Part shown: in pieces, positions 33,050 through 57,403 of the stretch
How positions within the stretch are numbered: position 1 is the first letter of the stretch
Layout: the number at the start of each line of letters is the position of its first letter
Notes under the pieces: model-generated
Told to the model about the DNA's origin: nothing
Database searches by the model: none
What the model saw: only the letters and a program-made list of their open reading frames with translations
Translations under genes and position numbers: made by a program
Source of the DNA: Pristiophorus japonicus
Taxonomy: Eukaryota
Direction of reading: 5' to 3'
NCBI RefSeq assembly: GCF_044704955.1
Contig: NW_027251843.1
Span: 930,001 to 994,000, forward strand
DNA: 64,000 nt

Positions 33050-36000
33050 CGGTGCACCCAGCCAGAATACCTGTGTCTGCTCATATATGATGGGTGGGGC
33101 AGGCCATGTGTGGATGTGAAGGTGGAAACAGTTAGGGGAAGGGATCTAGTAGATACAGGAGCCTCTAGCACGGTTGTCCACTCACCGAATCCGACCACTT
33201 CCCCGTGGTCGAGCAGAGTACCATTTACACTGGTGGGTTTTACGGGTAATGAGCAGGCTGGGGCAGTGTGGAAACCCTTAACCGTAGAGTTAGGACCGAA
33301 CATAATGAAATGGGAGGGCATTTTAATGAAGTGGGAACAGCCCGGTTCGGGAGTTCTCGGGGCCGACTACATGTTGACACACCACACCATAGTGGATATG
33401 GAAAACAATTGTCTATGGGGGGCATTTGATGCAGATAATATGGGAGAGATCGTAGTGATTCCCAGGGACAGTACAGACAAAGGCAGCACCTGCACGATGA
33501 AGCCGAAAGGGAGTTATGACTGAGAACGATTAGTCGATAACATTCCGGCCCGGTATCAAGGTATGTACGGGAGAATATGGATGCGTTTGCAATGCACAAG
33601 CACGATTGCGGGATAGTATCTGGGGTAGAGGTGAAGATAGATGGGGATCCGATGACACGACCCCAGAAACAGTATAATTTTCCCCGGGAAGCAGAAAGTG
33701 ATTTGGAAACTGCTATAAATTCCCTGGTGGATCAAGGTGCGTTGAGGACCATAGCCACACATGTAAACTCACCCCTATGGCCAGTAAAGAAGCCCGATAA
33801 CTCATGGAGGGCCACGGTAGATGACCGAATCCTGAATAAAAAATATTCCAGCCTGTGCGCCCACGGTAGCAGTGGTAGCGGATTTGATCGGGAGTATCCC
33901 TGCGGCCACAACAACTTTCACAGTGCGGGACATTTCAAACGGGTTTTGGTCCATTCCGCTGAGACGGGAGGACCAGTATAAATCTACCTTTACCTTTAAA
34001 GGTCAGCAGTATACGTGGACATGTCTTCCACAAGGGTTTCACAACAGTCCCTCGATCTTCCACCAGAGTATGGCCGAGGCATTAAACGGTTTTAGTCAGC
34101 CAGATCGGTTGGTCCAATACGTGGACGACCTGTTGTTATTCTCCGAAAGTGCGGAGGACCACGGGCCATTATTCAGTGAGTTACTGCATTTGTTGAAAGA
34201 AGCAGATTTTAAAGTCAGTCCCAAGAAAGTTCAAATAGGCAAAGAGGAGGTGCAGTTTCTAGGTTTGACCATTGGGGCAGGAGAAAGGGCCATAGATAGA
34301 GCTAAGAGAAAGTCAGTCCAGGAACTACCTGTTCCTAAGGACGTGTCTGGAGTAAGGTCTTTCCTGGGAAAAAGGGTTACTGCAGGGAATTCATAGAGGA
34401 TTATGTAACCGTGGCAGCTCCTTTGTTGAGGCTTCTTCGGAAAGGAGTAGAGTGGGAATGGAGTGAGACTTGTCAGGAAACTTTCATTTGGTTAAAAGCG
34501 GTGTTACAGACAGCACCAGCATCGAGAGCAGTAAATGGGGACCAGGATTTTAGTCTGGAGGTAGCAATGACTGGGGACAGTTTGAGTGCAGTGTTATTCC
34601 AGGAGCGACACGACAAGCTGAGACCAGTGGCCTACGCCTCCCGAGATCTCATCGAAATAGAAAAGAGCTTTTCGAATTGCGAACGACATCTGTTAGCAAC
34701 ATTTTGGGCAGTGAAGCATTTTCGGTCGCTCACAGGGTTAGCTACAGTAACTTTACTGACCTGTCACACCACGACACAAGTGTTACTGGATGGTAGAATG
34801 AAAGATGGGACAGTGCGCAGTAACAGGATTGCCCGCTGGACATTGTTGCTTACTCAGTTAGACCTGAAGGTCGAGAGGTCAGGAGAACCAAAGCTCGCCC
34901 CGAGCCTGGTTTATCCGGGAGCAGCTCATGTGTGTTCAGTGGAAGGAGTGTGGGATGTAGATGTGGGATTCTGAGCAGGAGAACACCTGACAGGCAGGGA
35001 CGTCTATGTAGATGGGTCTAGTTCAGTAATAAACAGAGAGAGAAAGACAGGCTGTGGGATTTACGATCCAGAGGCAGTGATGGAGAAAGCCATAAAATCC
35101 CCAACACTTTAAGTACGCAGCAGACCGAGCTAGCAGCAGTAGCGTATGTAGTCACACACCCGAACGAATTCCCAACTCCCTATACGATATGTTCAGACTC
35201 CATGTTCATTTCTAACTCCTGAACAGAGTATTTAGCCATATTGGCGAGGCGAGGGTTTAAGTCCTCAGATGGAAAATGGTTGGTGATGGTTCCATTGTTA
35301 AAAGTCATTTTGCACGTCAAGGGTACGGACCAGAAGGGTGACGACATCCAAAAGGTCAAAGCACACTCTAAGACAGAGCCCAAGTGGGAAGGGAATGAGA
35401 AAGCAGACACACTGGCTAAAACAGGGGCAGGAGAAGAGACACCTTGGGACCCATATCACTGTGGACAGATCACGGCTGTAACAGGCAGAGAGAGGCCCAA
35501 AGAAGTCCCATTGCCGCCTGATTTAAAACAGGCTCAGCTACGGGATGCAAACCTTAGAGCAGCGATTAGGGACAAAATAGACGGGAAGTCTGCAGTGGGA
35601 CCTTTGGGAGCTGCAGACATAGCAGTAAAGCAAGGAATGTTGTTCAAGGGAGATAGTTGGATCGTGCCAGGGCAGTGCAGGGAAGAATTCTTGCAGCTGG
35701 TGCATGTGGGTCCAGGAGCTGGACATCCAGGGCCAGAAACAATGTGGAATAAAGTAGAAGCCGTGGGATGGTGGCCCGGGCTTAGAAGTGATGTCAGGGA
35801 TTATTGCCAGAATTGTCTGGTATGTGCCACAAACAATCCAGACCCCCACCGAGGAAGGCTCCATTGGGACACACGAGGAGGGTAGAGGGGCCATGGCAGT
35901 CTATACAGATAGATTTAATTGGGTCACTGCCCACCTCAGGCAGAGGCAATAAATATTGCTTATGTTAATACATCTCTTTACAAAATGGGTTGAAGCTTTT

Positions 36001-36854
36001 CCATGTCGGGCGGCCACCGCGATAGTCACAGCAAAGGTTCTGGTGCGAGAAGTATTTTCTCAATGGGGACTGCCCCTGATAGTGGAATCAGATCAAGGGA
36101 GTCATTTCACCGGAGCAGTAATGCAGGCCACCCTAAAGCTGTTAGGGATACAGGGGAAATGGCATGTGGCGTATAACCCCCAATCGTTAGATCCAGTAGA
36201 GGACAAACCGGACCTTAAAAGAGAGGCTTAGGAAGGAAATAGGAGATACCCCGAAGAAATGGGGTGAGACCCTACCCCGAATACTGATGAGCCACTGAGC
36301 CAGTCTCTCTAAGAGTACGGGACACTCCCCACATGTGATGATGACAGGGAGACTAATGATGACCCCGACCCATATCCTAGCACCAGTCCTGACTGAAACG
36401 CAGGTTAAAGAGATCACATGGGGCAGGTTTGTTAGATCTGTATGGTACTCTGAAGGGGCTGCATTGGGAAGCAGCTAACAATATGGGCAGGCAGCACCAG
36501 CAGAATAAACTGCTGCTGGAACTCTGGGTTACACAGGAATGGAGGGCAGGAGATCAGGTAATGGTCAGGAATTATGCCAGAATAGGGGCATTTGAACCAT
36601 TGTACAAAGGATCATATAGCATTGTAGACAAGGCAAGCCCTATGGTGTACATGATCCAGCTGCCAAAACATATAAAATGGTTCCATATAAACCAGTGTAA
36701 GCTGTACAACCCCGGAGAGAAACGTAAAAAGTGGGCCAAGGCCCCACGAACAATAATGAGTTTGATCAGTGTAAGCCTCCCACCAATACTGTGGGATGAT
36801 GAGGATGGAGAAGTAAGGGACGGAGCAGTAAGGTGGAGTGGTCAGGTACTGTGA
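33050..36854 (+). pseudogene. pol: pol (PR-RT-tether-RNase H-IN) of a lokiretrovirus-like element, disrupted
   Basis: DTGASS, YVDD, RPVAY tether, second RNase H and integrase motifs in ORF fragments from 33110 to 36854. Confidence 0.9.
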
Positions 36855-37076
36855 CCTAGGGTGCCCTGGACACCTCCTCCATCTCCACCCCCGAGCCTCT
36901 GTAAGCCCAAGCATTGGGATAAAAGGAGAGGGAAGCAGTGGTTGTAAAAAGGAGTTACGTACATTTGTGAATAACTGAAGGAGGACCTGTGAGGGGGAGG
37001 CCCCACAGAGCAAAGGTATTTCTTTAATTTTTGTCTTTATAGGAGCGAATCGAGCCAAGGGTACGAGAGGAGGTGG

Positions 37077-38228
37077 ACGTTGTGGATAGGCCTGTGGATG
37101 GCCATTATTATTAAAGGATTGGGAGATCGGGGAGACACCGAGACATTCCTTACACACGGGTGTATGGGAGGAACCGGCCCCACTGTAACTCAAGGGGGAG
37201 CCATACGGAGCAACAAGGGCACAAACACCGATGCTCACACTGGGAGCTGGCCAGGGTGGTTGGGGTCAAATTCGACCAAGTACTCCAGACAAACCGAGGG
37301 TAAACTTGGGGAGGTGTCAGTGTCCTGCCCCAGGCTAAACATCACGGCCAGGAATGTACGGGTGAGAGAGGGGAGACGAGTTTGTCTGGAATGTAAAGGG
37401 ATTACCCCCATGGGAGGGTGGTGGTGGTTACAGAAAACAGACAGGAGAAAAGTTAATGCATCCACAGAATGGGAGAAACTGGGTAATAACTCAAACAGGC
37501 GGAGCACAGGAACAAGAGAAGGGGTGAAATTGTGTTGGGAAAAGTGGTGGAAGGAGGAATAAGGGATTTATGTCTGTGTGGTTGGATCTAGCCAGAAATG
37601 CAGGGGAGGTGTGGGGATTGTTTTTAAACGACAATGACAGGATTTCGGGTCAGGAATGAATTGGACGCAGGGTTTTGATTCCTGTGTGACCTTGACCAAA
37701 GGCAGTAAATGTGACCAAACTGATCGCAAGCAGATTAAAACCTCTCCCGAAAATGCTGACAGATTCTTCCTTTTGTTTCAAACCCCAGGTAGAGGCACAG
37801 TTTGCACAAGAAAGGATAATTCCTATCTCAGACCACAAACATATCTATATTACAGTCAATGATACGTTACGAACCTCCAGGGATACATATCGCGTGTTGG
37901 ATACTATATCCCACTGTTCCTCGAACATTTGACTGAACTGTTAAAGAACATCGAGTTGTCCCACAAACATTATTACACGTCACACCAAAAGAACGAAAAA
38001 GTAAGGGAGGAAATTGAGGAAATGATTGCCCCTCCACAGTGGGATGTGGGACTCAATATTGAGATCCCATCCTGGGTTCAAATTGTATCACACTTGTTAG
38101 TAATTGTACAGTTGGTAATAGTGTTGTATCTATTCGTCTTGTCCTGTTAACTAAAGCAAAAGATGAGGGAAGGGAATCTTGAAGGGTTATTAAAATCAAC
38201 CAAGGCGCAAGTGTTTGTAAAAGTATAA
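37077..38228 (+). pseudogene. env: Env-position Ig-domain membrane protein (start ATG>ACG, internal stop at 37560)
   Basis: Paralog of 15860-17010; splice acceptor 'ttttgtctttatag' near 37042. Confidence 0.7.
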
Positions 38229-38470
38229 ACTGAAGTCAGATGGATTAAGGCCAAACATCGTTTTGTTGTAAAAAGTATGTAAATGGAGATTTGACTGAAG
38301 ACTGCAATACACCCAAAAGAGCTCAATGGAAAGACGTTTTGTTGTAAAAAGTATGTAAATGGAGATTTGACTGAAGACTGCAATACACCCAAAAGAGCTC
38401 AATGGAAAGAAGAAGAAGCCACCTGTAGTAATGTCTCTGAGTTTATAACAAGAGATATTAAAGGGGGAAG

Positions 38471-39288
38471 TGTAAGGGTTATATGTTTCATGATCGAGGT
38501 GCAGCAAGAGGCCATGGACTAAAATGGCTTAAAAGAAAACCTTTGGGACTGTAGGGAAGGAGAAAGAGCACCAGCCTGGGGCAGGTGGTGACTGATCACT
38601 GATTAATGCGTTTTCTGGGGTCAGGAGTGAGACCCGATTAACATCGAGACAAAGGGTTTGATACAATCAAGCAGAGGAGCCCATGGATTCATTGGCCGGA
38701 GGGGAAAACCAGTTTCCTCTGGAGACTCCCAAGTCTGCGAAAACCCAGGACAACAAAGGATCCCACAAGGCATGCATTCTTGGATAACGGGGCACAAAAG
38801 ATAAGGAGTTATCTTTTGCCCCATCAATTCCATGTGTGAATTGTGGCTGTCCGAACAGATCCAGACCCATCACCACAGCCATCGAGACTCATCCAGCTGC
38901 ATTAACTGAAAGGCAGCCCAGCAGGAGATGTGTATAATCGAATGGATATATCTGTAAGAGCTGAGAACAAAGGTTCAGAGAGAGGAAGAACAGGTCGAAG
39001 AAACATCTCAGACCAGCAGGTCAATGAACTACAGCCACGAAGCAGCAGCAGGGCCACAACACCTTCCCTCGCTCCACGAGCCGACAATGGACAACAGTAG
39101 CAACTGGCTGGATGGGCGATTGTATGTCTTCGGTCAATCTCTAAGAAGTCTTGTTCTGTAATGTTCAGTTGTTTTTTGTGCAACAAAATAACAGTTGGGT
39201 TTAAGCCTAAACTTTGCATTACGTGGAGTCCTTCCTGTAATTCCCGAGGTCTATGAATCAGAGGAGAGTGGAAAATTAACACCTTGCA
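38471..39288 (+). repeat. LTR type 2 (3' LTR of the inner element, right arm)
   Basis: PPT aaagggggaag immediately 5'; TG...CA termini; 818 bp. Confidence 0.85.
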
Positions 39289-39696
39289 GCACATGAGCTC
39301 ATGACCGCGAGGTAAACCGGGACTGGTTGGTCCAGAATCTGTTTGATGTTTTAAAACAGATTCACTGGCAGGCAGCCAGTAACCTGGGGAACCAGCACCG
39401 GGAAACATCGGTTGCTACTTGAGCCCCGGAGAAGCCACGAGTGGAAGGTGGGAGACCAGGTAATGTTCAGGAACTGTGCCCGAGTGGGGGCATTCGAGCC
39501 ACTGTACATGGGGCCTTATAACATCGTAGATAAGGCCAGCCCCATGGTATATGCAGTCAGACTCCCGAAACATACAAAATGCTACCATATCAACCAGTGC
39601 AAGTTGTTTAACCCCGAGGGGGGGAAGACAAAGGCAAAGAGAAACCAGGGCACAATAATGAGCCTGGTGGACGCGGGTCTTCCTCCCATGGTGTAG
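39289..39696 (+). pseudogene. Integrase C-terminal remnant of the outer element
   Basis: ORF 39412..39696 with a GPY motif. Confidence 0.85.
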
Positions 39697-40070
39697 GACG
39701 ATGCTGATGACCCAGATGGCAGGGCAGTAAGGAGAAACAGTCGGATACCACGGCCTAGGGCGCCGTGGACGCCTCCTTACTCACCAGCCGCGAGCCGCAA
39801 GAGGCCCCAACAGGAGAGATTTTAACCGGGGGCACTCGATAACGCGGAACGAACTGTATATATATGTAAATAACGAAAGCCCGACCTGTGGAGGGAAAAA
39901 GCGCTCAGAGAACGGTGGTGCTGTATCTGTTTGTCTTAATCAGGAAATCAGAAGAAACGGGAGCCTGGGTGTAATTGATCAGCTATGGACCCACAATGCA
40001 CCTCCCGCAGCAGAAGACGACGGAATTCGAGATATTTCTGGTTTTGGTGACAAAATATCATTAGGGGGAT

Positions 40071-41196
40071 TGTAGCACCAGCTTTCTGGCCATTTCTATC
40101 AACAATATTTTAATTCCATAAATCCAAATCCCCAAGAAAGAACTGTACTGTTGGCGAGCTTGTGGGGTGGCACTAAGCTGCATTCATATACAACCGGACA
40201 TTTCACACTGACAGGCTGGGTAACAGGGAACCCAGGCCCATTGATGTCATCACCATCTAAAGTGATTACTGGGAACAATACCCCGAGAGGTAACTCAGAG
40301 ACACTGTGCCTTCGCATTATTAAAGCACAGTCACCACTCAGTCCCAACCCAAACTGGTGCAAGGCAGGAAATGGCCGGCCCGTTGTCTTCCAGGAGATAA
40401 GCCGGTTAAGCAAGATCGGTTTGTGATCGAAACCCATTACCTGCTAATGGGGGCCATCAACTCAGGAAACGACAGACATCCAGTAATCAGCACCCATTGT
40501 CTCTCCAGATGCAAGGCCTGGGAGCGGGAAAATAAAACATCATTTTTCACAAAGATTTCAAAGGCTACGAGCCACTCCAGGCCACGGCGGGAAGGGGAGG
40601 AGGAGGGGTCCAGACAGATCACCGGAATCAATCCATCGGTCAGTATTGGCGGGAGGAAAAGTGATGGGTTTTGGGGATATAAGGAGCCACTTTGCAACAA
40701 ACTCCAGCTCAGGTGGAAGAAGCTCAGGAAAAAGCCCAGGAAAAAGCCCAGGAAAAGCTCCAGAAAAGCCCAGGAAAAAGCCCAGGAGCGAGACGTTCAG
40801 GAAGAAGCTGCAATCAAGACAACGGGCAATCAGGGTGAGCATATTGCCTGCGCCTACACATCCGCAACACCACTTAGCTGTGTGAGGGAGTGATTGTAAG
40901 TCCCAACCAAACCCAAGGGGTTTAGTGCTGGGCGGCGGGGGGGGGGTCCTGTGTTAGTTTATTTCACGGGACGGTCCTTTTATTAAGCCGTGGTAACTTA
41001 GCACGGCAGGGCTTATTGGACAAGCCAGGGATGTACTGTTTTGCACTGTTTATGAGTGGTGTTGTTAATCTTATTAAACACAATACGGTTGAACCCGAAA
41101 AACGTGTGTCTGAGTCTCATCTGTCCATATAATCCCTATCGTCCAGAACTTGTAGAAGGAGGTGCGTTTTTGGTACGGCTGAGAGAACCACCTACA
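40071..41196 (+). repeat. LTR type 3 (3' LTR of the outer element, right arm)
   Basis: PPT aggggga, then TGTAGC...CCTACA; TATA 'gatataag' near 40676; 12-bp GAAAAAGCCCAG repeats. Confidence 0.8.
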
Positions 41197-41450: not shown

Positions 41451-43478
41451 GTAATGTATGTCTTTATTTTGCACTCAGGTCCCTGGAGTGGGGCTTGAAC
41501 CCACGATACAACATTGCATCTCTGGATGCTGCACAGTCTGAGCTGTGAGTCATATCCCGACCTCAGTTGGAACAGCTAACTCAGAACAAACAATAACAGC
41601 AACTTTTATGCAGCACCTTTAACACAGTAAAACTCCCCGAGTGCTTCACAGGAGCATTGTTGTTATGTATTTAACCCCTTTTAACATTGTAACCTGCATC
41701 ACACCTGCCCACCAGAGGGCCTGCCTGCCCTGTTGGAGTCCCAAGGGATCCCAGCATCCCTTGGCAGTATAGTATATAAGCAGGCCACCCATGAGGTACC
41801 TGCACTCTGTAACTACAGTAAAGGAGCTAAGGTCACACTTGCTCATTACACACAGTAATCGGTCTGAGCATTTATTATGAGCATAACAATTGGTGACGAG
41901 ATAACGAACCGCGCGTAAATGCAAAGAACAGTTGGCATCCTGGAGAAGTTCTCGGAGGGGGATGATAGGGAGGACTATGTGGAGAGACTCGACCAATACT
42001 TCTTAGCCAACAAGCTGGAAGGGGACGAGAATGCAACCAAACGATGGGCGATCCTCCTAACCGTCTGTAGGGCCACTACCTATGGCCTCATGAAGAATAT
42101 CCTGGCCCCGGCTAAACCAACAGATAAATCCTATGAAGAACTGTGTACGCTGGTCCAGGAGCACCTAAATCCTAAGGAAAGCCTTTTGATGGTGAAATAT
42201 TGGTTATACACGTGTCAACGATCGGGGGACCAGGAAGTGGCGAGCTACGTCACCGAACTAAGGCACCTTGCAGAACATTGTGAGTTTGAGGCATTCCGAG
42301 AACAAATGCTCAGAGACTTTTTTGTACTGGGCATTGGACATGAGACAATCTTTCGCAAGCTTGTTGACTGTAGAAACAGCGAATCTGAATAAAGCCATAA
42401 CGATAGCCTAAGCATTTATGTCCACCAGCGGCAACACCAAGCAGATTTCGCAGAACAAAGAAGTTTTGGCCAGTACTGTGCATAAAGTAACGTCGGTTTT
42501 GAGCAGAAATGTACATGGCAGAATGTACACACCGGCTGCTGTGGCCTGACCTCAATTGACCCAGAATCCGTCATCATCTGTTAATACGAGGCAGTTAACA
42601 CCCTGTTGGTGCTGCGGAGGTGATCATCGGCCCCATCAATGCCGCTTTAAGCACTATGTATGCAATGGTTGCAGAACAATGGGACACCTCCAATGAATGT
42701 GCAGGCGAGCTGCAAACCCTGCAAACCACCACGTTGCAGAGGAAGATCGGTCCACAGTGGATCAGATGGAATTGAAAACTCATACTGAGGAGGCAGAGGT
42801 GTATGGGGTACACACGTTCACGACGCAATGCCCACCAATAATGTTGAAAGTTGAACTGAATGGTATTCCAGTGTCAATGGAGCGGTACACGGGAGCAAGT
42901 CAGTCCATAATGAGTAAAACAGCCTTCGACAGGCTGTGGGGGAAGAAGGCACCCAGATCTGTCTGCTCCACTGTGGACCGATCTTCCTCTGCAACGTGGT
43001 AATTTGCAGGGTTTGCAGGGTTTGTAGCTCACCTGCACATTCGTTGGAAGTGTCCCATTGTTCTGCAGCCATTGCACACAGGCCCAAGCTCAGCCCCATT
43101 CACACGAAGTTAAGGACTTATACAAGGGAACTAATCTCGGTAATTGGCAGTGCTGAAGTCAAAGTCTCCTATGATGGAGCAGTACACGAACTCCCGCTAT
43201 GGATTGTGCCATGGGATGGCCCCACGTTATTTGGCAGAAGCTGGCTGGGGAAAATCCGCTGGAACTGGGACAACATCCGAGCGCTTTCGTCAGTTGATGA
43301 CACCGCATGTACCCAGGTTCTAAGCAAGTTCTCATCGTTATTCGAGCCAGGCATTGGAAGTTTCTCGGGGACGCAAGTGCAGATCCATTTGGTTCCTGGT
43401 ACGCGACCGATCCACCACAAGGCTCGGGCGGTACCGTACATGAAGCATGAAAAAGTGGAAATCGAGCTGGACAGGCTG

Positions 43479-43954
43479 TGTCGAAGAAATTTTAGCTTAA
43501 ATTAACTCAGCGGAGACTTTCAGAGCCGTGCTTCGAGAGAAAGTTTATTTCTAACGAGATATCTCGGAGAGCCCGCTTAGTCCACACTAAGGCAGAGCTC
43601 TGACTTTTACAGGAAAACCCGCGCTATATTTATACAGTAAAAAGAGGAGTTTTATCTTCAAATTCCACACATTAACATTAATCATATTACTCCGAGAATA
43701 CAAAGGTCATCCCGGAAGGCACACATTATCTGTTCTTGCATAGTTTCTCCCTGTCTGTGTCAATAATCAGTTTCTCCCTGTCTGTGTCAATAATCAGTTT
43801 TAGGAGACTCATGCAGGGAACAGATAATCAGTTTTTGTTTTCTTAAGACAAAGAAGTTCGGGTGTTTTCTCTAGCTCCATTATTTCTACAATATCAGCAA
43901 GAAGTGATTTTAACCCTTCCCTTTACCATACTACAGAGATCGTTTTCTTCCACA
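43479..43954 (-). repeat. ERV 3' LTR
   Basis: TG..CA termini; minus-strand AATAAA at 43544-43549; PPT AAGGAGGGAG adjacent; 27-bp tandem duplication in U3. Confidence 0.97.
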
Positions 43955-44003
43955 ACTCCCTCCTTGTTGATCTTTATAACCGATCAACACAGTTTCTTTT
44001 TCT

Positions 44004-45491
44004 TTATTGAAAAGGGGGTTCATATCCTTCGGGGTAGGGTCGCATCTTGAGGCATTCTACTTCGTCATATTCATCTAATTTTTCTTCTATGCGGCTTAAC
44101 CTTCCTTTCACAAACATACTTTTCCCTTCTACTTGGGATACTAGGCCCATTACCTGGTTAATTAGCCTTTTTACTTTTATCCACATCCCACACATGATTA
44201 TTAGTAATATAAGCATAACCACACCTACGATTACTATGGGGTATATAGCAAGCTTCAGTACTGCTGAAGCTTTGGGGGACCATCTGGAAAACACATCCCA
44301 CCAGTGGTGTACTGTCAGGGAGGTGACTGCATTCGCGATTCTTACTAGTTGTCCCTTCTTGTAACTCATTTCTATTTTGAACTGGTGGATGTCTTGGCCC
44401 CTTTTGGACAGAGCCTCCTCTATTTGTTTGTCATTTTTTATCAAATTGTGCAATCTGGTCAAATTAATTACAGGGGGTAAAGGATCAATTTTGTGCACAG
44501 ACAGATATTTTACTACATTCTGCCACTGCCCAAAAGTATAAGTTCTTCTTTCTTCTGGATCATACAGGGTGTAGACTTCTCTCACACATGTATTAATGGG
44601 GGGTTTATACAGAATTCCGTCCAGGTAGACAGGTCTATTTCCCGTCAGACAGACCTCATTCTGTCCTACTTCAGAAATATCGGTGTCATTGGTCGGTTTT
44701 AGTTCCCATCTACATATTCCAGTGGGGTGCTGTAGAGAGCATGGTTCATGTATGGCAGTCTGATAGGGACACACCATTCCGAACGGCCACCTAGCACATC
44801 CCCTGTCGTGATGTGTTAGATTCTTTTCATCAACCCAGTCTCCTTTAAATTCTGGATACCAGAAGTTTCGTCCGAACAACTGGGGTATTATTTGGAACTG
44901 ACACCATATTTCTCCTTTTGTCTTATTTACTATTTCCATAGTGATGTTACATCCTTTTAAATCGCAACCAGTATATTTTTCTTGGGGTTTAATGGTTAAA
45001 TTTAGAAGTTTATCTTTCTGATTGATTTCCAGTAATCTCTCCCATGTGTTAGCATGGAAGGATAGTACTTTCCTTTCTAGCTCGGCTCTCAGTAACTGTC
45101 TGATCATCTCCCTGAACATGCAATGGGTGTACTTATTTACTTCCTTTTGTTCCTTCATTAGGTTTTCTATTTCCTTCTCTATCTTTTCATTCTGCCCCCA
45201 GGTCATTTTGTCTGTGATATAACCTGATACCTGCAATTGCTGTAATCCTTCATCCCAGGCATTTCTTATTTTTATGCCTTTCCCCACTCCACAAGCTTTG
45301 CACATTACTGTGAAGTTCCCTATTTTACAATTTTTTCCTTCTGGGCACACAAAGTTATCTTGCCGTTCTGACCTATCACTTCTTTCCCACTCCATATCTC
45401 CCTTCCATTCTTTTCCTTCTTCCTGTCTGACTCTTCCTACTGCTAAAATGATCAGAATGCCCAATGTCCGCTTACAGCTTTTCCGCCTCAT
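44004..45491 (-). CDS. env: Envelope glycoprotein (ERV-S/SnRV-type), 495 aa, no furin site or fusion peptide evident
   Basis: Signal-like LGILIILAVG; Cys-rich ectodomain; heptad repeat; HHWWDVFSRWSP membrane-proximal motif; TM IVIVGVVMLILLIIMCGMWI. Confidence 0.88.
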   Translation of the reverse strand: MRRKSCKRTLGILIILAVGRVRQEEGKEWKGDMEWERSDRSERQDNFVCPEGKNCKIGNFTVMCKACGVGKGIKIRNAWDEGLQQLQVSGYITDKMTWGQNEKIEKEIENLMKEQKEVNKYTHCMFREMIRQLLRAELERKVLSFHANTWERLLEINQKDKLLNLTIKPQEKYTGCDLKGCNITMEIVNKTKGEIWCQFQIIPQLFGRNFWYPEFKGDWVDEKNLTHHDRGCARWPFGMVCPYQTAIHEPCSLQHPTGICRWELKPTNDTDISEVGQNEVCLTGNRPVYLDGILYKPPINTCVREVYTLYDPEERRTYTFGQWQNVVKYLSVHKIDPLPPVINLTRLHNLIKNDKQIEEALSKRGQDIHQFKIEMSYKKGQLVRIANAVTSLTVHHWWDVFSRWSPKASAVLKLAIYPIVIVGVVMLILLIIMCGMWIKVKRLINQVMGLVSQVEGKSMFVKGRLSRIEEKLDEYDEVECLKMRPYPEGYEPPFQ

Positions 45492-45618
45492 CTTCCCTTT
45501 TTTCTCTGTTTCTATAACACTCCTGTATTAATTTGTTAAAATAACAGCACGCAAGCACGAGGGTAACAGTGATCCAAATAATAAAGGCCCAAATTGGCAT
45601 ACAAGCAAGTTCTGACAT
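45472..45618 (-). CDS. 48-aa single-pass membrane accessory protein between pol and env (below the ORF-track cutoff)
   Basis: Manual translation MSELACMPIWAFIIWITVTLVLACCYFNKLIQECYRNREKREDEAEKL*; first ATG after a candidate branch point/acceptor; overlaps the env start by 20 nt. Confidence 0.65.
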   Translation of the reverse strand: MSELACMPIWAFIIWITVTLVLACCYFNKLIQECYRNREKREDEAEKL

Positions 45619-45751
45619 CCGGCCTGAACTCTGGGTGTCTTATTTTAGGTTCAATGTACCCTTGCGAAGGGTCACAAAAGAGGGGTCAGTACAGTTCTTT
45701 GGTGAGAAGATGGCCGTCTTCTCGGGTAGGTAACCGTAGTACGTCCTAGTT

Positions 45752-48700
45752 CTATGTCTCTTCTTTTGGCTGTGATTTGTTGGGGAAGTAATATTTACAA
45801 CGGGTTGCATGCACCCAGTTTGGATGCTTTTCCAATTTCAATGCCGTTCTCGTCGTGAGAATTATCTGATACGGTCCTTTCCACCTAGGAGAAAAAGATT
45901 CTTTGTTTAATGTTTTCACTAACACTTGGTCTCCTGGCTTGAATGGGTGCATATTTCCTTCCGACAGGGGCACCTGTGTCTGCTTTATCTGTTCATGCAG
46001 ACTTCTTGCTATTTCACACATGGCCTGAGCATACTTTAGTGATTTTTCATCATTCCAAATTAATGCTACCTTTTCCGCTACCAGTGGTGGTTTTACTCCG
46101 GTAGGCATTGGCCTTCCCAATAAGGCTTCATGCGGTGTCAAACCAGTGTTTCGGTTTTTCTGGTTTCTTAATGTATATAGTACCAACGGTAGGGCGTCTG
46201 GCCATTTTAATCCTGTCTCCTTACATACCTTGGTAAGGGTAGATTTTATTATCCCATTTACTCTCTCTACTATTCCTGAAGACTGAGGTTGATATGGTAT
46301 ATGTAACTTCCACTGGAAACCTAACGCTTCTGCAAGATTTTGCACTATTTTTCCGGTGAAGTGTGTTCCCCTGTCACTGTTGATTCCCATAGGTATCCCA
46401 TATCTTGGTACTATTTCTTTAAATAGAATCTTTACTACTGTTCGGGCATCGTCTCTCCTAGTGGCGTACGCTTCTACCCACCTTGTGAACATGTCTACTA
46501 TGACTAATAGGTACTTAAAACCTGATACTGGAGGCATGTGGACAAAATCAATTTGCAAATTTTCAAAGGGCATACTTGGCTGGGGTAGATGATCATATTC
46601 AGCAGGTGTTTTACCTCTGTTATTTTGTTGACAAATTTGGCATGTTCTAGCAACTTTTTCAATTACCACTGTTATTCCTGGTGCATACCACTGTGCATTA
46701 ATAGCATGCATCATCCCTCCTTTGCCCATGTGAGCCTGACCATGTGCTAGGCGAGACAGGGGCAAGAATAGAGATCTAGGGCAAACAGTTCGCCCATCAG
46801 GGTGATACCAAATGTCATTTTTTAGAAAGCAACCCTGGTTTTCCCAAGTCCTTCTTTCTTGCATAGTAACTTGTTGTTGGGCTGTTTTAAGTAGTTGGAC
46901 GTCAAGTGTCTGTGGAAGGGTGACTGAGACTGCTTGAAGGCAGTCTGTCTGTGCCGAAGCGACCTGTTTGGCTGCTTCATCAGCCCTCCTATTTCCCACT
47001 GACACTTCATCCTCACCGATTGTGTGTGCTGCACATTTGATAACGGCTACCTTATTTGGCAACTGAATGGCGTCTAATAGATTAAGCACCAATTGAGAGT
47101 GCTTAATATGCTTTCCACCAGAGGTGATAAAGCCTCTGTTTTTCCATAGTTGTCCAAAATCATGGACCACACCGAATGCATATCTAGAATCAGTATAGAT
47201 ATTGGTAGTTTGATCTTTTGCTATTATACAAGCTCCGGTGAGGGCAAATAATTCAGCAGCCTGAGCCGAGGTTCCAGGAGGCAGGGCAAATGCTTCAACA
47301 GTTTCATGGGGGCTTACAATTGCATAGCCTGACAAAAGCAAATTATCTGATGGTCTGTACGATGACCCATCCGTATAGAGAATGAGATCAGGATTGTCCA
47401 TGGGCTCTGTGAGCAAATCTGGTCTCGGCAAGGTGGCTAATTCCACTGTTAACAGACAGTCATGCTGGTCTGGATCCTCTATTTCTCTAGTGGGAACAAA
47501 AGTGGCGGGGTTTACTATCGGCGCGCGTTGAAAGGTGTAGTTAGAGTGTGATAGCAGCAGTACTTCATAACCTGTTCTTCTAGATGCTGTGAAATGCTGG
47601 GTGGCGGCAGAGTTCAATAGTAATAGCACTGCATGAGCGGTAACGACAGTACACGGATAGTCCAAAACAATAGGTACTGACTTCTCCACCATGACCGCAG
47701 TAGCGGCTACAGCGCGTAGACATGCTGGCATTCCCCTCACTACTGGAGGAAGTAAAACCGAATAATAGGCCACTGGTCTATTTCCCCCACCATGTTCTTG
47801 GGTTAATACCGCCGTTGCAAATCCTTCTTTCTCATTCACATACATCTGAAAGGGTTTAGAATAGTTTGGAAGTCCCAATGCCGGAGCGTTAGTGATAGCT
47901 TTCTTTAACTGCTCAAACACCTCCTCCTTCTCTGGGGTCCACTCTACCTTGGGTGGGGCATCATTTAGGGCAGCTGATCTTAGGACCGCATCCCATTCTC
48001 GATAATCAGGGATCCACTGTCTGCAGTACCCCACCATCCCCAAAAAAGACAAAATATCCTTTTTTGTCTTTGGTATGGGGATACTCTGAATAGTCTGAAT
48101 TCTTTCGGGTCCTAGCTGCCTCTGCCCTTGAGATATGTGGAAACCCAGGTACTGGACTTGAGTCTGGCAAAATTGTAGCTTTTGTAATGATACTCGGTGC
48201 CCTCTTTCACATAGGTGTTGTAATAATTTCAGGGAATCTTGCATGCATCTGTATCCGTGGCTGGAAGCCACAAGCAAATCATCCGCATATTGTAACAGTA
48301 CAGACTGGTCTGATAATAAACAGTCTTCTAGGTCTCTTTTTACTGCTGCTGCATATACTGCGGGGCTTTCGGTGTACCCTTGGGGCAACCGGGTCCATGT
48401 GTACTGCTGTTTCTTGTAGGTGAAAGCAAACAGATACTGACTCTCTTGATTTACTGGGATGGAGAAAAAGGCTGAGCACAAATCTATCACAGTAAAGACA
48501 GTTGCTGTTGGTGGGATGGCAGATAGCACAATGTTGGTGTCCGGTACCACAGGGGTGATAGGGACTACTATCTTATTAATAGCTCTTAGATCTTGCACAA
48601 ATCTCCACTCATTCGGCCTATTAACCTTTGGTATGGGCAGTATCGGAGTGTTACACGGGCTCTGTGTCTTTTCTAGAACTCCTTGTTCCAACAATGCAGA

Positions 48701-49885
48701 AATGACTGGCTCTATCCCATCTTCTGCCTCTGGAGGCAGTGTGTACTGCTTAATGCTTGGTAACACGGCGTTCTTTATCAGTCGTACCCGGTGGGGTGCT
48801 GCAGAATGTACCTTCCCAACATGATTCTTATGTTTTGCCCAAAGTTCAGAAGACACTTGATTCAATGCCATTGGCAGCTTAGGGCTCGGTTGTCCAGGGG
48901 GTTGCTGTTTTTTAAAGGTGGAGGCATAACTTTTACCTTTCCACTGGAGAATTCCCCTGGAACGGGTGATAAATTCTATCTGGACATTCTGTAATTCTAT
49001 TACTGCCCAAGGTCTATAGCCTTGATGCTGCTTCTCCTTTTCTATTTCTACAATCATCGGACCCATATCTTTGGGTTTCGCCGGCGGTTTTACAGCCAAT
49101 GTCAGATGGGGTGTTGAGTTCTCTTCTTTAAACCGCTTCTGCTGTAAGGGTGTCAAATCCATGGCTACCCCTAATCCTTCTGGTCCGAAATAAATGCGGG
49201 GTGTAGCTTCTATTATCTCTTCTTTATCTAGAAAGGGCTGTATTAAGCACTGGTAAGTTTCAGCTTTTTGTCGAGTGTACCAGGCTGTGCAGTGAAGCTG
49301 AACCGCCTCAAAGCTTGTTAAGATGATATACATCAGTTCGTCCGCATTAGAGTCAAATTTAGCTTTTAAGTTTTTTACAATATCCTGTATCAGGGGGGAA
49401 TAGAAGTTGTCACTCAATTGCCAACAATAGAGGGCAGCCTTTTCTTTGTTATCTTCCCCCTCCTCCCTTCTAATCCCATCAAAGAACTGATGGATTTTAT
49501 TTTGAGGGAGCTCCATGAACATCCCTTCCTTTGTGCAATATATTGTGGCTCCTAGTTTGCACAAAGTCTGTCTTCCTAATAAGGGGAGAGGGGCTGTTTG
49601 AGAGACTATCAAAGTCTCATTATCTACTTGTTGTCCTTCAATTGTCAATTTAGTAGGTTCGGGCAAAAATTCTTTCAGGGGGATACCGGCCACTCCCATG
49701 CTCAAGACGGTAGTGTTGCTTACAGGTAATCCCACAGAGGGTGGTACAGAAGACATAGTAGCACCGGTATCCACCAGAAACTTTACATCAGTGTTTCCCA
49801 CTTTTATTACTGCCAAAGGATTCTCTTCTATGTCTGTAGATAAGCGGAGGGTTGCCGCCTGTACCACTACACCTCCGGGGCATCC
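45752..49885 (-). CDS. pol: Pol (PR - 2H phosphoesterase - RT - tether - RNase H - IN), expressed by readthrough
   Basis: Uninterrupted >1370-aa frame with FLVDTGA, LPQG, YADD, YTDGS, HHCC, DDE and GPY motifs; in frame with the gag TAG. Confidence 0.97.
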   Translation of the reverse strand, partial: GCPGGVVVQAATLRLSTDIEENPLAVIKVGNTDVKFLVDTGATMSSVPPSVGLPVSNTTVLSMGVAGIPLKEFLPEPTKLTIEGQQVDNETLIVSQTAPLPLLGRQTLCKLGATIYCTKEGMFMELPQNKIHQFFDGIRREEGEDNKEKAALYCWQLSDNFYSPLIQDIVKNLKAKFDSNADELMYIILTSFEAVQLHCTAWYTRQKAETYQCLIQPFLDKEEIIEATPRIYFGPEGLGVAMDLTPLQQKRFKEENSTPHLTLAVKPPAKPKDMGPMIVEIEKEKQHQGYRPWAVIELQNVQIEFITRSRGILQWKGKSYASTFKKQQPPGQPSPKLPMALNQVSSELWAKHKNHVGKVHSAAPHRVRLIKNAVLPSIKQYTLPPEAEDGIEPVISALLEQGVLEKTQSPCNTPILPIPKVNRPNEWRFVQDLRAINKIVVPITPVVPDTNIVLSAIPPTATVFTVIDLCSAFFSIPVNQESQYLFAFTYKKQQYTWTRLPQGYTESPAVYAAAVKRDLEDCLLSDQSVLLQYADDLLVASSHGYRCMQDSLKLLQHLCERGHRVSLQKLQFCQTQVQYLGFHISQGQRQLGPERIQTIQSIPIPKTKKDILSFLGMVGYCRQWIPDYREWDAVLRSAALNDAPPKVEWTPEKEEVFEQLKKAITNAPALGLPNYSKPFQMYVNEKEGFATAVLTQEHGGGNRPVAYYSVLLPPVVRGMPACLRAVAATAVMVEKSVPIVLDYPCTVVTAHAVLLLLNSAATQHFTASRRTGYEVLLLSHSNYTFQRAPIVNPATFVPTREIEDPDQHDCLLTVELATLPRPDLLTEPMDNPDLILYTDGSSYRPSDNLLLSGYAIVSPHETVEAFALPPGTSAQAAELFALTGACIIAKDQTTNIYTDSRYAFGVVHDFGQLWKNRGFITSGGKHIKHSQLVLNLLDAIQLPNKVAVIKCAAHTIGEDEVSVGNRRADEAAKQVASAQTDCLQAVSVTLPQTLDVQLLKTAQQQVTMQERRTWENQGCFLKNDIWYHPDGRTVCPRSLFLPLSRLAHGQAHMGKGGMMHAINAQWYAPGITVVIEKVARTCQICQQNNRGKTPAEYDHLPQPSMPFENLQIDFVHMPPVSGFKYLLVIVDMFTRWVEAYATRRDDARTVVKILFKEIVPRYGIPMGINSDRGTHFTGKIVQNLAEALGFQWKLHIPYQPQSSGIVERVNGIIKSTLTKVCKETGLKWPDALPLVLYTLRNQKNRNTGLTPHEALLGRPMPTGVKPPLVAEKVALIWNDEKSLKYAQAMCEIARSLHEQIKQTQVPLSEGNMHPFKPGDQVLVKTLNKESFSPRWKGPYQIILTTRTALKLEKHPNWVHATRCKYYFPNKSQPKEET

Positions 49886-51586
49886 CTATGCTGATTGGTG
49901 CGGGTTGGGGTTAGAAAAGGAAAATTGAGGGGCCAGTGGAGGTGTAGGTTCGGGGAAATTCCCCTGTAACCCTCCAAACTGTTTAGGTGGGCACCTACAA
50001 TCTCGAGCCCAGTGCCCCTTCCTTCCGCAATTTCTACACTCATCTTGCGAGCGATCTCGCTGGGACCACTGTCCTCTTCCTCCTCCCCTCCTTCCCCCAA
50101 ACCCTCCTCTATTCTGTGCTTGTCCTCTTCCTTTCTGCTGATAGTATTGTCCTGCTGTTTTGGCTTTGTTATCTTTGTAGGTAAATAGTCCCTCCCTGTC
50201 CATGTTTGCCAGTACTGTAATTGTTTCCTTCCAGTTTTTTCCTTGCCAGTCCAAGACCTTGATCTTGTACGTTCTGGCATGCTGTGGTAACATACAATTC
50301 AACAAAGTCTGCACTGCTAAAAGTTCGTTTTGATCCAAGGGTATTCCTGCATGCTCGTCCCAGCTATTTTTCCACCTGCCTGCGAAATCTATCATTGATT
50401 CTTCCGCTTTCTGCAGACAGCGGTTGACTTCCCCAATGTCCCCATGTTTTTTAGCTCCCTTCAGAATTGCATTTTTTCCCCTATGTTGCAGCCAGTGAGT
50501 TAATGACTCATTGCCGTTGTCCAGCAAGGTATCATCAACTCTCCAATCCTCCCTTTCTCCTGGCGGGATCGAGAACATATCTTTTACTCCCTGCCAGGAG
50601 GATCCGTAGGCTGCTTGTAATAATAATTTAATATCCCCCGGTAGCGGATTGTAAATCGTACATGTCTGCTCAAGCCAGTTGTGAAATGCTATAGGTTTCT
50701 TTACTGGGTTTGGGGCGGCAGAGATCATATCTCTGGCCTCTCCCGGGGACCAGGGTTTTAAAACCACTGTGGTTCCTATCATTACCCTGGGATTTTGGAG
50801 GAGGAGGGTAGAGTCGGCTTCTGCCTGGGCTGGGGTTGTTTGCGACCTTAGTCGAGAACTCATCCCAGATCTCTGATTGACTTCCCCTCCCTCTGCTGCT
50901 TCAGCCCCTGCTCCTAATACCTCCGGATTTCCTCCATCGGCTCCTCCATTAGGTGGTGGGGCCGGGAGGACAGCTAGTTCTCTCTGGGCTTGATCTCTAT
51001 GGGCAATAACCATTTCTATAATTTCCTGCCAGCTATTTCGCTTTGGGGGTTCTATACGAGGATAAAGTCCCACAGTGGGTGCTGAGGGGATAGGGAGGTT
51101 TGGAGGGCTATAAGAGGGAGGTTTTTCATTTTCCCCCTTTTCTTTTCCTCCTGATTTATTCTCCGAATTTTTATTTTTCGGAGGCTGATGTCTCTTAGCA
51201 ACCTCAATCCATTTATTAAAACAATTTTCCATGTAATCCTTGTCCCAAGTAGGGTCTCCCCCTCCTTCCTTGGTTATTTTTCTCCATTCCTCAATTAAAG
51301 ATAGTTTAAAACTTCCTCCATATGGCCAATCCCCATCAGACCAACCGTACAAATCGCTACTAAACGTTACCGTGTATCGGTCATCTCCTGTTTCTTTAAT
51401 TACAGTGTCCGCCGGCGAGCCGGGCGGCACAATTGGATCTCCTACCTTCTCTCGTTGCTTTACTACCTTACGGATTCTCTTTTCGGTTTTAGAATGTAAT
51501 TTCATTCCTTTGGTCAAGGGGTCGTCTTTCTTTCCTTTTCTAGGAGCTGGGCGCGAGCGCCCTGCTCGACTAGAGCTGTTTCCCAT
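49886..51586 (-). CDS. gag: Gag (566 aa)
   Basis: MGNSSS myristoylation start at 51586; PPSY, PSAP and LYPRI late-domain motifs; CCHC knuckle CRNCGRKGHWARDC. Confidence 0.95.
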   Translation of the reverse strand: MGNSSSRAGRSRPAPRKGKKDDPLTKGMKLHSKTEKRIRKVVKQREKVGDPIVPPGSPADTVIKETGDDRYTVTFSSDLYGWSDGDWPYGGSFKLSLIEEWRKITKEGGGDPTWDKDYMENCFNKWIEVAKRHQPPKNKNSENKSGGKEKGENEKPPSYSPPNLPIPSAPTVGLYPRIEPPKRNSWQEIIEMVIAHRDQAQRELAVLPAPPPNGGADGGNPEVLGAGAEAAEGGEVNQRSGMSSRLRSQTTPAQAEADSTLLLQNPRVMIGTTVVLKPWSPGEARDMISAAPNPVKKPIAFHNWLEQTCTIYNPLPGDIKLLLQAAYGSSWQGVKDMFSIPPGEREDWRVDDTLLDNGNESLTHWLQHRGKNAILKGAKKHGDIGEVNRCLQKAEESMIDFAGRWKNSWDEHAGIPLDQNELLAVQTLLNCMLPQHARTYKIKVLDWQGKNWKETITVLANMDREGLFTYKDNKAKTAGQYYQQKGRGQAQNRGGFGGRRGGGRGQWSQRDRSQDECRNCGRKGHWARDCRCPPKQFGGLQGNFPEPTPPLAPQFSFSNPNPHQSA

Positions 51587-51907
51587 TCTTCCGGGTGCGA
51601 TGTCTCGCGATTTTTCTGAAATGAGAATTAAGGACACTCCTACAAAATATACAGTAATATTTTACAAAGCGCTCACCGGTGTTCTCTTTTCCGCTCAGCT
51701 CGGGGTCTCCTTATTGCTTTCTTGTTATTTTAGCTTCTTTGTGGTAGCTACCTTAAATGCCTCACCCTTCAAGGGATCTTGGTGGCTCGTCCCCCTTTTA
51801 GCTAGGACAGCCTTGGTACCTTCCCCCTTTCAGCTAGGAAGGTCCTTAAAATTCCTCTTTTCTCTTTTCAAAGTTAAATTTGGTTCTTTTGGATCTCGTT
51901 TTTAGAG

Positions 51908-51926
51908 ATCCTGCCTGACTACGCCA
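51908..51926 (-). promoter_or_regulatory. Primer-binding site, tRNA-Ser type
   Basis: TGGCGTAGTCAGGCAGGAT vs the recalled tRNA-Ser(AGA) complement TGGCGTAGTCGGCAGGAT (one extra A). Confidence 0.8.
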
Positions 51927-51931
51927 GAATC

Positions 51932-52407
51932 TGTCGAAGAAATTTTAGCTTAAATTAACTCAGCGGAGACTTTCAGAGCCGTGCTTCGAGAGAAAGTTTA
52001 TTTCTAACGAGATATCTCGGAGAGCCCGCTTAGTCCACACTAAGGCAGAACTCTGACTTTTACAGGAAAACCCGCGCTATATTTATACAGTAAAAAGAGG
52101 AGTTTTATCTTCAAATTCCACACATTAACATTAATCATATTACTCCGAGAATACAAAGGTCATCCCGGAAGGCACACATTATCTGTTCTTGCATAGTTTC
52201 TCCCTGTCTGTGTCAATAATCAGTTTCTCCCTGTCTGTGTCAATAATCAGTTTTAGGAGACTCATGCAGGGAACAGATAATCAGTTTTTGTTTTCTTAAG
52301 ACAAAGAAGTTTGGGTGTTTTCTCTAGCTCCATTATTTCTACAATATCAGCAAGAAGTGATTTTAACCCTTCCCTTTACCATACTACAGAGATCCTTTTC
52401 TTCCACA
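51932..52407 (-). repeat. ERV 5' LTR
   Basis: 473/476 identical to 43479-43954; minus-strand TATAAATA at 52080-52087. Confidence 0.97.
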
Positions 52408-55283
52408 GGCTGTAACGTGAGGGCATCATCGCGCCGGTGGAATTCAACACTGGGCCGGCCTGATTGTTCCCATACTCAAGGAGGACAGTACAGTTAGAAT
52501 TTGCGGTGACTATAAAGTAACAATTAACCGTTTTTCGCTACCCAAGGCAGACGCCCTATTTGCGACCTTGCTGGAGGGAAGACGTTCACAAGCTGGACCT
52601 GACCTCGGCCTACATGGCGCAGGAGCTGGAGGAGTCTTCAAAAGGCCCCACCTGCATCAACTCGCACAAAGGTCTATTCATTTAGAACCGGTGCCCGTTC
52701 GGGATTCGGTCGGCTGCAGCAATCTTCCAGCAAAACATGGAAAGCCTGCTAAAGTCGGTTCCTTGTACACTGGTCTTCCAGGACAACATATTGGTTACAG
52801 GTTGGGACACTATGGAGCACTATGGATGAGGTTCTTAGTCGGTTGGATCGCGTGGGGCTCAGGTTGAAACGCTCAAAGTGTGTATTCCTGGCACAGAAGG
52901 TTGAATTATTAGGAAGAAGGATCGCAGCAGATGGCATCAGACCGACCGACGCCAAGACGGAGGCCATCAAGAACACGCTGTGACCACAGAACTGCCGTCG
53001 TTTCTGGGACTCCTGAACTACTTCGGTAATTTCCGACCTGGGTTAAGCACCCTACTAGAACCCTTGCATGTGCTACTGCGCAGGGGAGACGACTGGGTAT
53101 GGGGGAATTCACAAGAGGCTGATTTTAAGAAAGCCAGAAATTTACTGTGTTCTAACAAACTGCTTGTCCTGTATAACCCATGTAAACGACTCGTGTTAGC
53201 TTGCGATGCGTCGTCATACAAGTTCGGGTGTGTTTTACAACAGGCTAATGAATTGGGGATTTTGCAACCGGTTGCATATCCATCTAGGAGTTTGTCCAAG
53301 GCCGAAAGGGCCTACAGCATGATTGAAAAAGAGACTCTGGCTTGTGTTTACATTGTAAAAAAAATGCACCAGTACTTGCTTGGCCTGACGTTCGAACTTG
53401 AAACAGATCACAAGCCGCTCATTTCGCTGTTCTCAGAGAGCAAACGATAAATACCAATGCCTCTGCCTGCATCCAAAGATGGGCGCTCATGCTGTTGGCA
53501 TGCAACTGTGTAATTCGCCACAGACTGGGCACAGAGAACTGCACAGATGCTCTCAGTCGGTTACCGTTGCCCACCACTGGGGTGGAAATGGCACAGCCAG
53601 CGGACTTGCTTATGGTCATGGAGGCATTTTAGAATGAGAAATCCCCCATTACGGCCCGCCAGATCAGGACATAAGAACATAAGAACATAAGAACATAAGA
53701 ATTAGGAACAGGAGTAGGTCATCTAGCCCCTCGAGCCTGCTCCGCCATTCGACAAGATCATGACTGATCTGGCCGTGGACTCAGCTCCACTTACCCGCCC
53801 GCTCCCCATAACCCTTAATTCCCTTATTGGTTAAAAATCTATCTATCTGTGACTTGAATACATTCAATGAGCGAGCCTCAACTGCTTCCTTGGGCAGAGA
53901 ATTCCACAGATTCACAACCCTCTGGGAGAAGAAATTCCTTCTCAACTCGGTTTTAAATTGGCCCGTATTTTGAGGCTGTGCCCCCTAGTTCTCGTCTCCC
54001 TGACCAGTGGAAACAACCTCTCTGCCTCTATCTTGTCTATCCCTTTCATTCTTTTAAATGTTTCTATAAGATCACCCCTCATCCTTCTGAACTCCAACGA
54101 GTAAAGACCCAGTCTACTCAATCTATCATCATAAGGTAACCCCATCACCTCTGGAATCAGCCTAGTGAATCGTCTCTGTACACCCTCCAAAGCTAGTATA
54201 TCCTTCCTTAAGTAAGGTGACCAAAACTGCACGCAGTACTCCAGGTGCGGTCTCACCAATACCCTGTACAGTTGCAGCAGGACCTCGCTGCTTTTGTACT
54301 CCATCCCTCTCGCAATGAAGGCCAACATTCCATTCGCCTTCCTGATTACCTGTTGCACCTGGGCCAATTGTGGAGCAGTGGAGGCGTGGCCTAAACAGTT
54401 GGAGCTGTGAGCAGTGAGAGAAGGAGCTGCTGCTTTTGCTCCTGGCTGGGCCTGTGAATCAGCCCAGGAACAGAAGGAAGGAAGGAAGGGGCTTCACCAC
54501 CAACTTTCACCCAGAGGGAGAGGAGGAAAAAGCAGAAAACTTTAACAACTTCACCATTTCTACAAAGAGTTGGAGAGAGGGGGAAAGACCAACAACAACA
54601 TCCAGTGTGGAAGGAGGGAGACTCTACCATTCTACAGGTGGGTGTATTGGTGCAGTCCCTAAAAGACTTTGCTGTATCGGTGGGGGGAGGAAAGAAGACC
54701 AGTCGGGGGCCGGAACATCGCGGGGGGGGTGTGTGTGGAAGTGTGTGTGGGGGCCTTGCTTACAACTGGGCCCCACACACCTTTGAAGCACCCCTCCACC
54801 ATTGCCAAGCCTGGGATAGCTGGAGCTACCAGGCTAAGAAACAATTAATCCACCCTAATTAACATCGTTGGGAGTGTGTGCCTGTGTGGCTCCAGCTGCA
54901 CCAGGTGAAGACATCTTCTCCCCTCACCCGAAGACCACCCCAAGGACTATTTTTTGTTTGCCATCTGGGGATTGCACCCACCCACAGCTGCGAGGGGAGA
55001 CCTGCCCTCGCAGTTTCCCCCCTTCCCACCCCCCTCTCTCTTTCTCTGTTACTCTCTGTCTCTCCCCTCTCTCTCTGAGAGCCCTTTCCTCCCAAATTGA
55101 TTGGAAAAATATAAAACAATTAAGACAACTGAGCAGAGGGAGCAAGGCCCCTCCCCAATTGTCAACTAGGGGAGAGGTGTGCCTCGTTAAGAGCTCCTCT
55201 GCTCAGTCTATTAAACGAGGCCATTTAAAGACCATTAAGGCTTGTGACTTTGGGGTAGGTGTAGCCCTTAAAGGGACCCCGTG

Positions 55284-57246: not shown

Positions 57247-57403
57247 ACCATGGCCGCGGGCGGGCCCTTATCAAGGGCGCAAGGCCTTGAGCTGCGACGG
57301 CTCAAAAAGTTCCTCGCTGGGCTGCTGAGGGAGTGGAGGTCAACAAAAGACTCCACTCCCCCCCCCACAATAGGTTAGGTAGAGGTTGCACTATGCTCTA
57401 GTC

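Follow-up and report, generated by a model that had tools for sequence, protein, structure and literature searches.

HIV-1 Vpu is a protein of ~81 aa that consists of an N-terminal membrane helix and a charged cytosolic helix. In the snakehead retrovirus (SnRV), ORF1 sits between pol and env, the start of env is provided by a leader exon that precedes gag and further ORFs are present, and in EIAV the S2 gene is located at the start of env. The pneumovirus SH and alphavirus 6K proteins are small hydrophobic proteins whose genes neighbor that of a class I fusion protein. Fish endogenous retroviruses of class I are usually annotated as plain gag-pol-env elements, and a survey of anamniote envelopes that covers gamma-type envs describes epsilon-related elements with a gamma-type env and without accessory genes (bioRxiv 10.1101/2021.11.23.469661). 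On the HIV-1 vpu/env mRNA, the weak context in which vpu starts lets ribosomes reach env (PMC5220186), and Vpu is reported to act via beta-TrCP (PMC7764263). SnRV ORF1 is described as a 52-aa accessory ORF with a subgenomic mRNA (PMC12193657), and S2 as dependent on both Gly2 myristoylation and an ExxxLL motif (bioRxiv 10.1101/065078). In the chicken element Ovex1, ORF3 starts 11 bp past its splice acceptor, and no accessory ORF is reported for the element (PMC2717909).

Here we analyzed a window of 64,000 nt from the shark Pristiophorus japonicus (contig NW_027251843.1, positions 930,001 to 994,000), in which a reading made from the sequence alone had proposed a hidden 48-aa Vpu-like membrane microprotein overlapping the start of a retroviral env. 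We located the ORF before env at 45472-45618 on the minus strand, with the same translation as in that reading. The provirus that carries it comprises the following features, given in window coordinates and in the order of transcription.

51932 to 52407, minus strand: 5' LTR of 476 bp, with a TATA-like box at 52087 and a polyA signal at 52002
51587 to 51931, minus strand: ATG-free leader, with candidate splice donors, presumably used, whose last exon base is 51766, 51752 or 51677
49886 to 51586, minus strand: gag, 566 aa, ending in a TAG that is in frame with pol and is presumably read through
45752 to 49885, minus strand: pro-pol, open, 1377 aa, directly after the gag TAG
45661 to 45691, minus strand: candidate env splice acceptor, with a branch-like heptamer (45691-45685), a pyrimidine tract and an AG ending at 45661
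45563 to 45619, minus strand: 57-nt block, beginning one base before the ORF ATG and running through codon 19, to which a diverged contig realigns while leaving its flanks unaligned
45472 to 45618, minus strand: 48-aa ORF, with ATGs at 45618 and 45600 and a stop that overlaps env
45544 to 45594, minus strand: predicted membrane helix, an uncharged hydrophobic run ending in CC, codons 9-25 of the 48-aa ORF
44004 to 45491, minus strand: env, 495 aa, with its own ATG (A at -3), a signal-like segment and an internal in-frame deletion
43479 to 43954, minus strand: 3' LTR, with three mismatches to the 5' LTR

The two LTRs of the provirus, 476 bp each, differ by 3 mismatches and the target-site duplication is 5 bp long, so that the insertion is likely to be young. 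Among solved structures, the RT/RNase H region of pol matched that of MLV best (495 bits, against 198 for foamy virus and ~55 for HIV-1), which places pol in a class I element, and we consider the provirus to be a likely recent entry into the shark genome by a young class I (gamma/epsilon-like) retrovirus. The family is multi-copy, and in the copy analyzed here gag, pol and the 48-aa ORF are all open while env is damaged. Older Gypsy-like gag-pol fragments flank the provirus on the plus strand (41919-43505 and 52905-53450), and the provirus was apparently inserted into this older element. Starting ~5 nt past the end of the 5' LTR, a primer-binding-site-like stretch (~51909-51926, minus strand) appears to resemble the 3' end of a tRNA-Ser. 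Between protease and RT, pol harbors an insert of ~215 aa (residues ~130-345; 48851-49498, minus strand) containing two HxT motifs, at residues 198 and 260, which as a pair presumably correspond to the 2H phosphoesterase pattern; Pfam and PDB sequence searches with the insert returned no significant match. CNPase ORFs are reported from fish epsilon-like endogenous retroviruses (PMC4977317).

The predicted protein has the architecture that had been described for it. The transmembrane prediction called for by the sequence-only reading yielded a single modelled helix and a best Kyte-Doolittle average over a 19-residue window (KD19) of 2.31, at residues 4-22, in agreement with the proposed N-terminal membrane segment. 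The juxtamembrane CC is present at residues 24-25, and the charged tail contains six basic and six acidic residues between positions 26 and 48. A single-sequence structure model returned one helix spanning residues 3-47 with a mean pLDDT of 91, an outcome to be expected for many short hydrophobic peptides. The hydrophobic moment peaks at 0.74 in windows starting at residues 26-27 and is low within the membrane helix (0.02-0.19 in windows starting at 1-18), where the only polar residues are T17, T19 and the cysteines. With so little amphipathic character in the helix, a pore face or channel is not evident, although the protein does show the general viroporin trait of small size combined with a predicted membrane helix and basic residues behind it (48 aa, KD19 of 2.31, six K/R). 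A motif scan of the protein detected no DSGxxS, [DE]xxxL[LI], YxxPhi or AxxxAxxxA, and residues 26-48 are free of both Ser and Thr; DSGxxS, the beta-TrCP phosphodegron, and AxxxAxxxA are motifs of Vpu.

The branch point and acceptor that had been proposed upstream of the ORF are both visible in the sequence, as the heptamer at 45691-45685 and the AG ending at 45661. Among the 678 sense-strand AGs of the internal region, this is the only one that combines a pyrimidine fraction of at least 0.75, a YTRAY branch match and the lack of a nearer AG, these being simple ad hoc rules and not a trained model; by pyrimidine content alone, it ranks third. The ORF ATG lies 42 nt from the acceptor-like site and is, as had been claimed, the first one after it, followed by a second in-frame ATG at 45600 and then by that of env at 45491. 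The latter falls within the last 20 nt of the ORF and in another frame, which bears out the proposed overlap. The start contexts of the ORF are weak (C at -3 and T at +4 for the ATG at 45618; T at -3 and C at +4 for that at 45600), whereas the env ATG, with A at -3, has a better one, and there is no further ATG between those of the ORF and that of env. Each of the three candidate donors in the leader matches the consensus at 7 of 9 positions. The stretch from the TATA-like box (52087) to the start codon of gag (51586) contains no ATG, and a spliced env RNA would therefore have the ATG at 45618 as its first AUG regardless of the donor used. The ATG-free leader also rules out an upstream coding exon spliced to the 48-aa ORF. 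The vpu/env-like layout put forward by the sequence-only reading is thus supported at the level of the DNA, with a unique acceptor, an ATG-free leader and a succession of weak, weak and better ATGs, while the spliced transcript itself is predicted. Neither of the two results that this reading had named as refuting it, a lack of ORF conservation in diverged relatives or an env acceptor located downstream of both ORF ATGs, came up in the sequence data covered here.

Comparison with HIV-1 Vpu reveals a small ORF that in both cases overlaps env out of frame and has a weak start context, and a predicted protein that, like Vpu, has a membrane helix at its N-terminus and a charged helix in the cytosol. 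In contrast to these similarities, the 48-aa ORF has no match to Vpu (Pfam, E up to 1; PDB, E up to 10), the pol of the shark provirus is of class I and not of the HIV-1/SIV lentiviral lineage (495 bits to MLV versus ~55 to HIV-1), and the protein, at 48 aa, lacks both a beta-TrCP degron and a dileucine motif. As judged from sequence, the ORF is Vpu-like in layout and is not a Vpu, since it differs in homology, lineage and degron. The SnRV ORF1, an accessory ORF of a fish retrovirus, is similar in size (52 aa as against 48 aa), but the leader of the shark provirus contains no ATG and its env ends ~50 nt from the 3' LTR. EIAV S2, Nef and glycoGag, which are convergent SERINC antagonists, parallel the predicted shark protein in being small accessory products of retroviruses that act at membranes and have no relation to one another; unlike S2 and Nef, however, the shark ORF encodes Ser at position 2 and a predicted membrane helix, and has no ExxxLL or YxxL. 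SH and 6K share with it a short single helix, juxtamembrane cysteines and a neighboring fusion gene, although our searches identified no sequence or fold match between them and the shark ORF. The provirus and chicken Ovex1 have in common the env family and, as predicted for the provirus, a single spliced message and gag-pol readthrough, and differ in that the shark provirus places 169 nt with a small ORF between the acceptor and the env ATG.

The frequency at which such an ORF arises in shuffled sequence varies with the null model. Dinucleotide shuffles of the 260-nt spacer generated an ATG-initiated ORF of at least 40 aa with a KD19 of at least 2.0 in 1 of 5000 instances, and in 16 of 5000 when the KD19 threshold was lowered to 1.6. 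Block shuffles, which preserve local base patches including the T-rich patch and constitute the strictest null used here, did so in 74, 80 and 57 of 5000 instances for blocks of 12, 20 and 40 nt, respectively (1.1-1.6%). Across the window, 8 of 230 ORFs of 40-100 aa, the 48-aa ORF included, reach a KD19 of 2.0, and it is the only one to do so among the five ORFs of this size on the sense strand of the provirus. Within codons 4-27 of the ORF, T occupies 8, 12 and 13 of the 24 first, second and third codon positions; T is not sharply enriched at the second position and adds no support for coding.

Evidence of conservation comes from contigs of two runs (X1 and X2) of one study, of unrecorded type, that were aligned to 43960-52300 at 80% likeness. 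A contig of 1085 letters from X1 is 84% identical to the provirus across the end of pol (45759-46378; 97 differences in 620 positions), and joints of equal depth (352.9) indicate that 45620-45758 is skipped, 45563-45619 is realigned and 45332-45562 is again skipped, with the assignment of these joints to a single diverged contig following from their equal depth. The length of the contig fits a collinear spacer, and run X2 presents joints at 45618 and 45563. The start of the realigned block falls within one base of the ATG, for which ~3 of the 260 spacer positions would qualify by chance. The block is less structured than its shuffles (z +2.0), so RNA folding provides no explanation for its realignment, and we dismissed the idea that the ORF coincides with a structured RNA element (z values of +1.2 and +2.0, with no Rfam match). 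The acceptor region is unaligned in the diverged X1 lineage. In the tail of the ORF, a 9-base insertion in one contig keeps the frame, and the indels listed for another X1 contig, of high depth, include a gap of one base within the 3' third that would change the frame unless compensated. These alignments lend modest support to the retention of the ORF's start and hydrophobic portion in one diverged lineage, and the realigned 57-nt block, thin evidence from a single lineage, is the best indication of possible selection on the ORF.

Searches with the 48-aa ORF identified no homologue among proteins of 26-84 aa or, in a weak search, among those of 85-2000 aa, no sequence match in PDB (E up to 10), no match among viral models and no Pfam match above the cut-off. 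The Pfam families WBP-1 (E 0.065) and MLANA (E 0.22) were rejected as below the cut-off; these hits stem from the presence of a helix with cysteines after it. In the Atlas, the best score obtained was 0.83, under the useful level, and the window contains no second copy of the ORF. Scans of viral, metagenome and genome contigs for related loci produced a single locus (L001), the env of which is 31% identical to the first sequence of the query alignment and which harbors no such ORF. As L001 carries a distant env of the same family, the 48-aa ORF is not family-wide. This locus (JAJBUH010000237.1), a pol-env fragment of retroviral origin, is deposited as part of a Bacteroidales MAG, where it likely represents host contamination, and its env clusters with koala records. 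The literature covered, which included few subscription papers, described neither the 48-aa ORF nor any Vpu-like ORF from endogenous retroviruses of sharks.

Alignment of the window env with a 711-aa Env of the same species (P0119) jumps from residue ~63 to residue 250 at 45285-45287. This in-frame deletion, which the sequence-only reading had overlooked, removes ~186 residues including the furin site and the fusion peptide, and no RxK/RR motif is left in the window env. With both elements deleted, this copy of the provirus is likely unable to make a fusion-competent Env. Other contigs present at least three different env deletions (45132-45438, 44105-45281 and 44261-45238), which suggests that a family with intact gag-pol has repeatedly lost Env function. 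The nearest env records, 99% and 73% identical to the window env, both come from P. japonicus. The window env has no Pfam match and 78 relatives at E up to 0.001, and, of the 20 that were looked up, those with a name belong to sharks, frogs, a caecilian, bony fishes, a turtle, birds and mammals. One of the matches (P0045, E 7e-7) corresponds to chicken LOC422926, the Ovex1 ORF3 locus. By these sequence matches, the window env is a member of an Ovex1-ORF3-like family that appears widespread in vertebrates and has no Pfam model. In the feature space of the Atlas, P0119 lies near paramyxovirus-F clusters (0.93; PF00523 on 32% of members), which we regard as a lead only, and P0119 and its relatives display features like those of paramyxovirus F or baculovirus F. 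The single-sequence model of env was unusable (pLDDT 40), and a search of solved structures with the env profile gave no match.

We lean towards the view, which we consider somewhat probable, that the 48-aa ORF encodes an accessory single-pass membrane protein that is expressed via leaky scanning and acts through its helix. Splicing to 45660 would give an env message with the 48-aa ORF at its first AUG, and most ribosomes would scan past the two weak AUGs (45618 and 45600) and start at the env AUG. Because the frame of the ORF ends past the env AUG, its translation would also dampen Env output. The N-terminus of the protein would be luminal and its C-terminus cytosolic, given that there is no basic residue before the helix and six after it. 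C24 and C25 may be palmitoylated, as their adjacency suggests, and the amphipathic helix at residues ~23-37 would rest on the membrane surface. In its most likely mode of action, the protein would be a small oligomeric membrane-modifying or helix-binding factor that operates in the secretory pathway and helps Env to be trafficked or particles to be released. A mode of action as a ubiquitin-ligase or AP-2 adaptor appears less likely than action through the helix, since the Vpu degron and S2-type sorting motifs are absent from the predicted sequence. With considerable doubt, we also entertain the broader possibility that shark retroviruses combining a class I pol with an env that is F-like and of the Ovex1 type arrived independently at the vpu/env design, and that their membrane microprotein, made from the env message via leaky scanning, counters an ancient host membrane defence or forms a release channel. 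Under this possibility, an ORF that stays intact where Env has lost fusion would imply an Env-independent role. Were the ORF found to be kept, the vpu/env solution would have arisen independently in a virus of cartilaginous fish; a kept ORF would also suggest that genes of fewer than 50 codons are being missed by annotation, and would provide a handle on the host membrane defences met by early vertebrate retroviruses.

In two alternative accounts, the peptide itself is idle. It is unlikely that the ORF is a regulatory uORF, with selection on its AUG, weak context and overlap setting the level of Env; retroviral uORFs are known cis-regulators of Env whose peptides have reportedly received no functional study (PMC13762970), and this account is favored by both a conserved block that begins at the ATG and an ORF tail that may tolerate a change of frame. 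The conserved block, however, extends 19 codons into the hydrophobic segment, beyond what a start context needs, and fewer than 8 in 100 of the shuffled spacers containing a 40-aa ORF are as hydrophobic (57-80 of ~1010-1030). A chance ORF in the T-rich patch of the spacer is very improbable, even though seven further ORFs of the 230 examined across the window are hydrophobic enough to reach the same threshold, a bias of T towards the second codon position is not clear and no homologues were identified. Under the strictest null such ORFs appear in 1.1-1.6% of shuffles, and chance would also have to account for the placement of the ORF at the first AUG that follows the best acceptor, where no other ATG competes with it, and for a conserved block that starts at that ATG.

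Two further readings retain a role for the encoded peptide. One of them, which we judge distinctly unlikely, regards the ORF as a detached leader of Env, whose helix continues into env as a polytopic precursor elsewhere. The ORF is out of frame with Env in the present copy, the env of which is already damaged elsewhere, and in one contig the tail of the ORF carries a gap that alters the frame; a helix, basic loop and signal segment would, moreover, be topologically coherent. Among 43 long Env relatives, several of which are near-duplicates or lack a signal segment, only one has two hydrophobic segments within its first 120 residues, and the second of these, at 104, has the wrong spacing for such a fusion. 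The horn shark proteins P0003 and P0015 possess a single signal segment at the point where the window env starts, no longer protein matches the ORF in a weak search, and the same-species Env P0119, whose N-terminus has no signal segment, does not match it either. The least probable of the readings considered here is that of a true functional analogue of Vpu, whose binding of a restriction factor, for instance tetherin, would direct the latter to degradation via a cytosolic adaptor motif. The tail is about half as long as that of Vpu and contains no Ser or Thr, and DSGxxS, [DE]xxxL[LI], YxxPhi and AxxxAxxxA are all absent, which argues against such an analogue despite the similarity in gene layout and predicted topology. 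In favor of such an analogue, an early-vertebrate origin of tetherin and the convergence of unrelated retroviral proteins on the same targets are reported (PMC7764263).

Another LTR element, which has a YVDD RT and is ~33% identical to the pol of the provirus, is present in the window as two decayed copies (~13300-23300, minus strand, and ~31300-41000, plus strand). Each copy presents, after pol and on the sense strand, a hydrophobic ATG-initiated ORF of 42 aa with a KD19 of 2.72 (at 16065 on the minus strand and at 38022 on the plus strand). A GC-rich LINE-like element at 55272-61304 on the plus strand harbors a first ORF of 413 aa and a broken endonuclease-RT frame.
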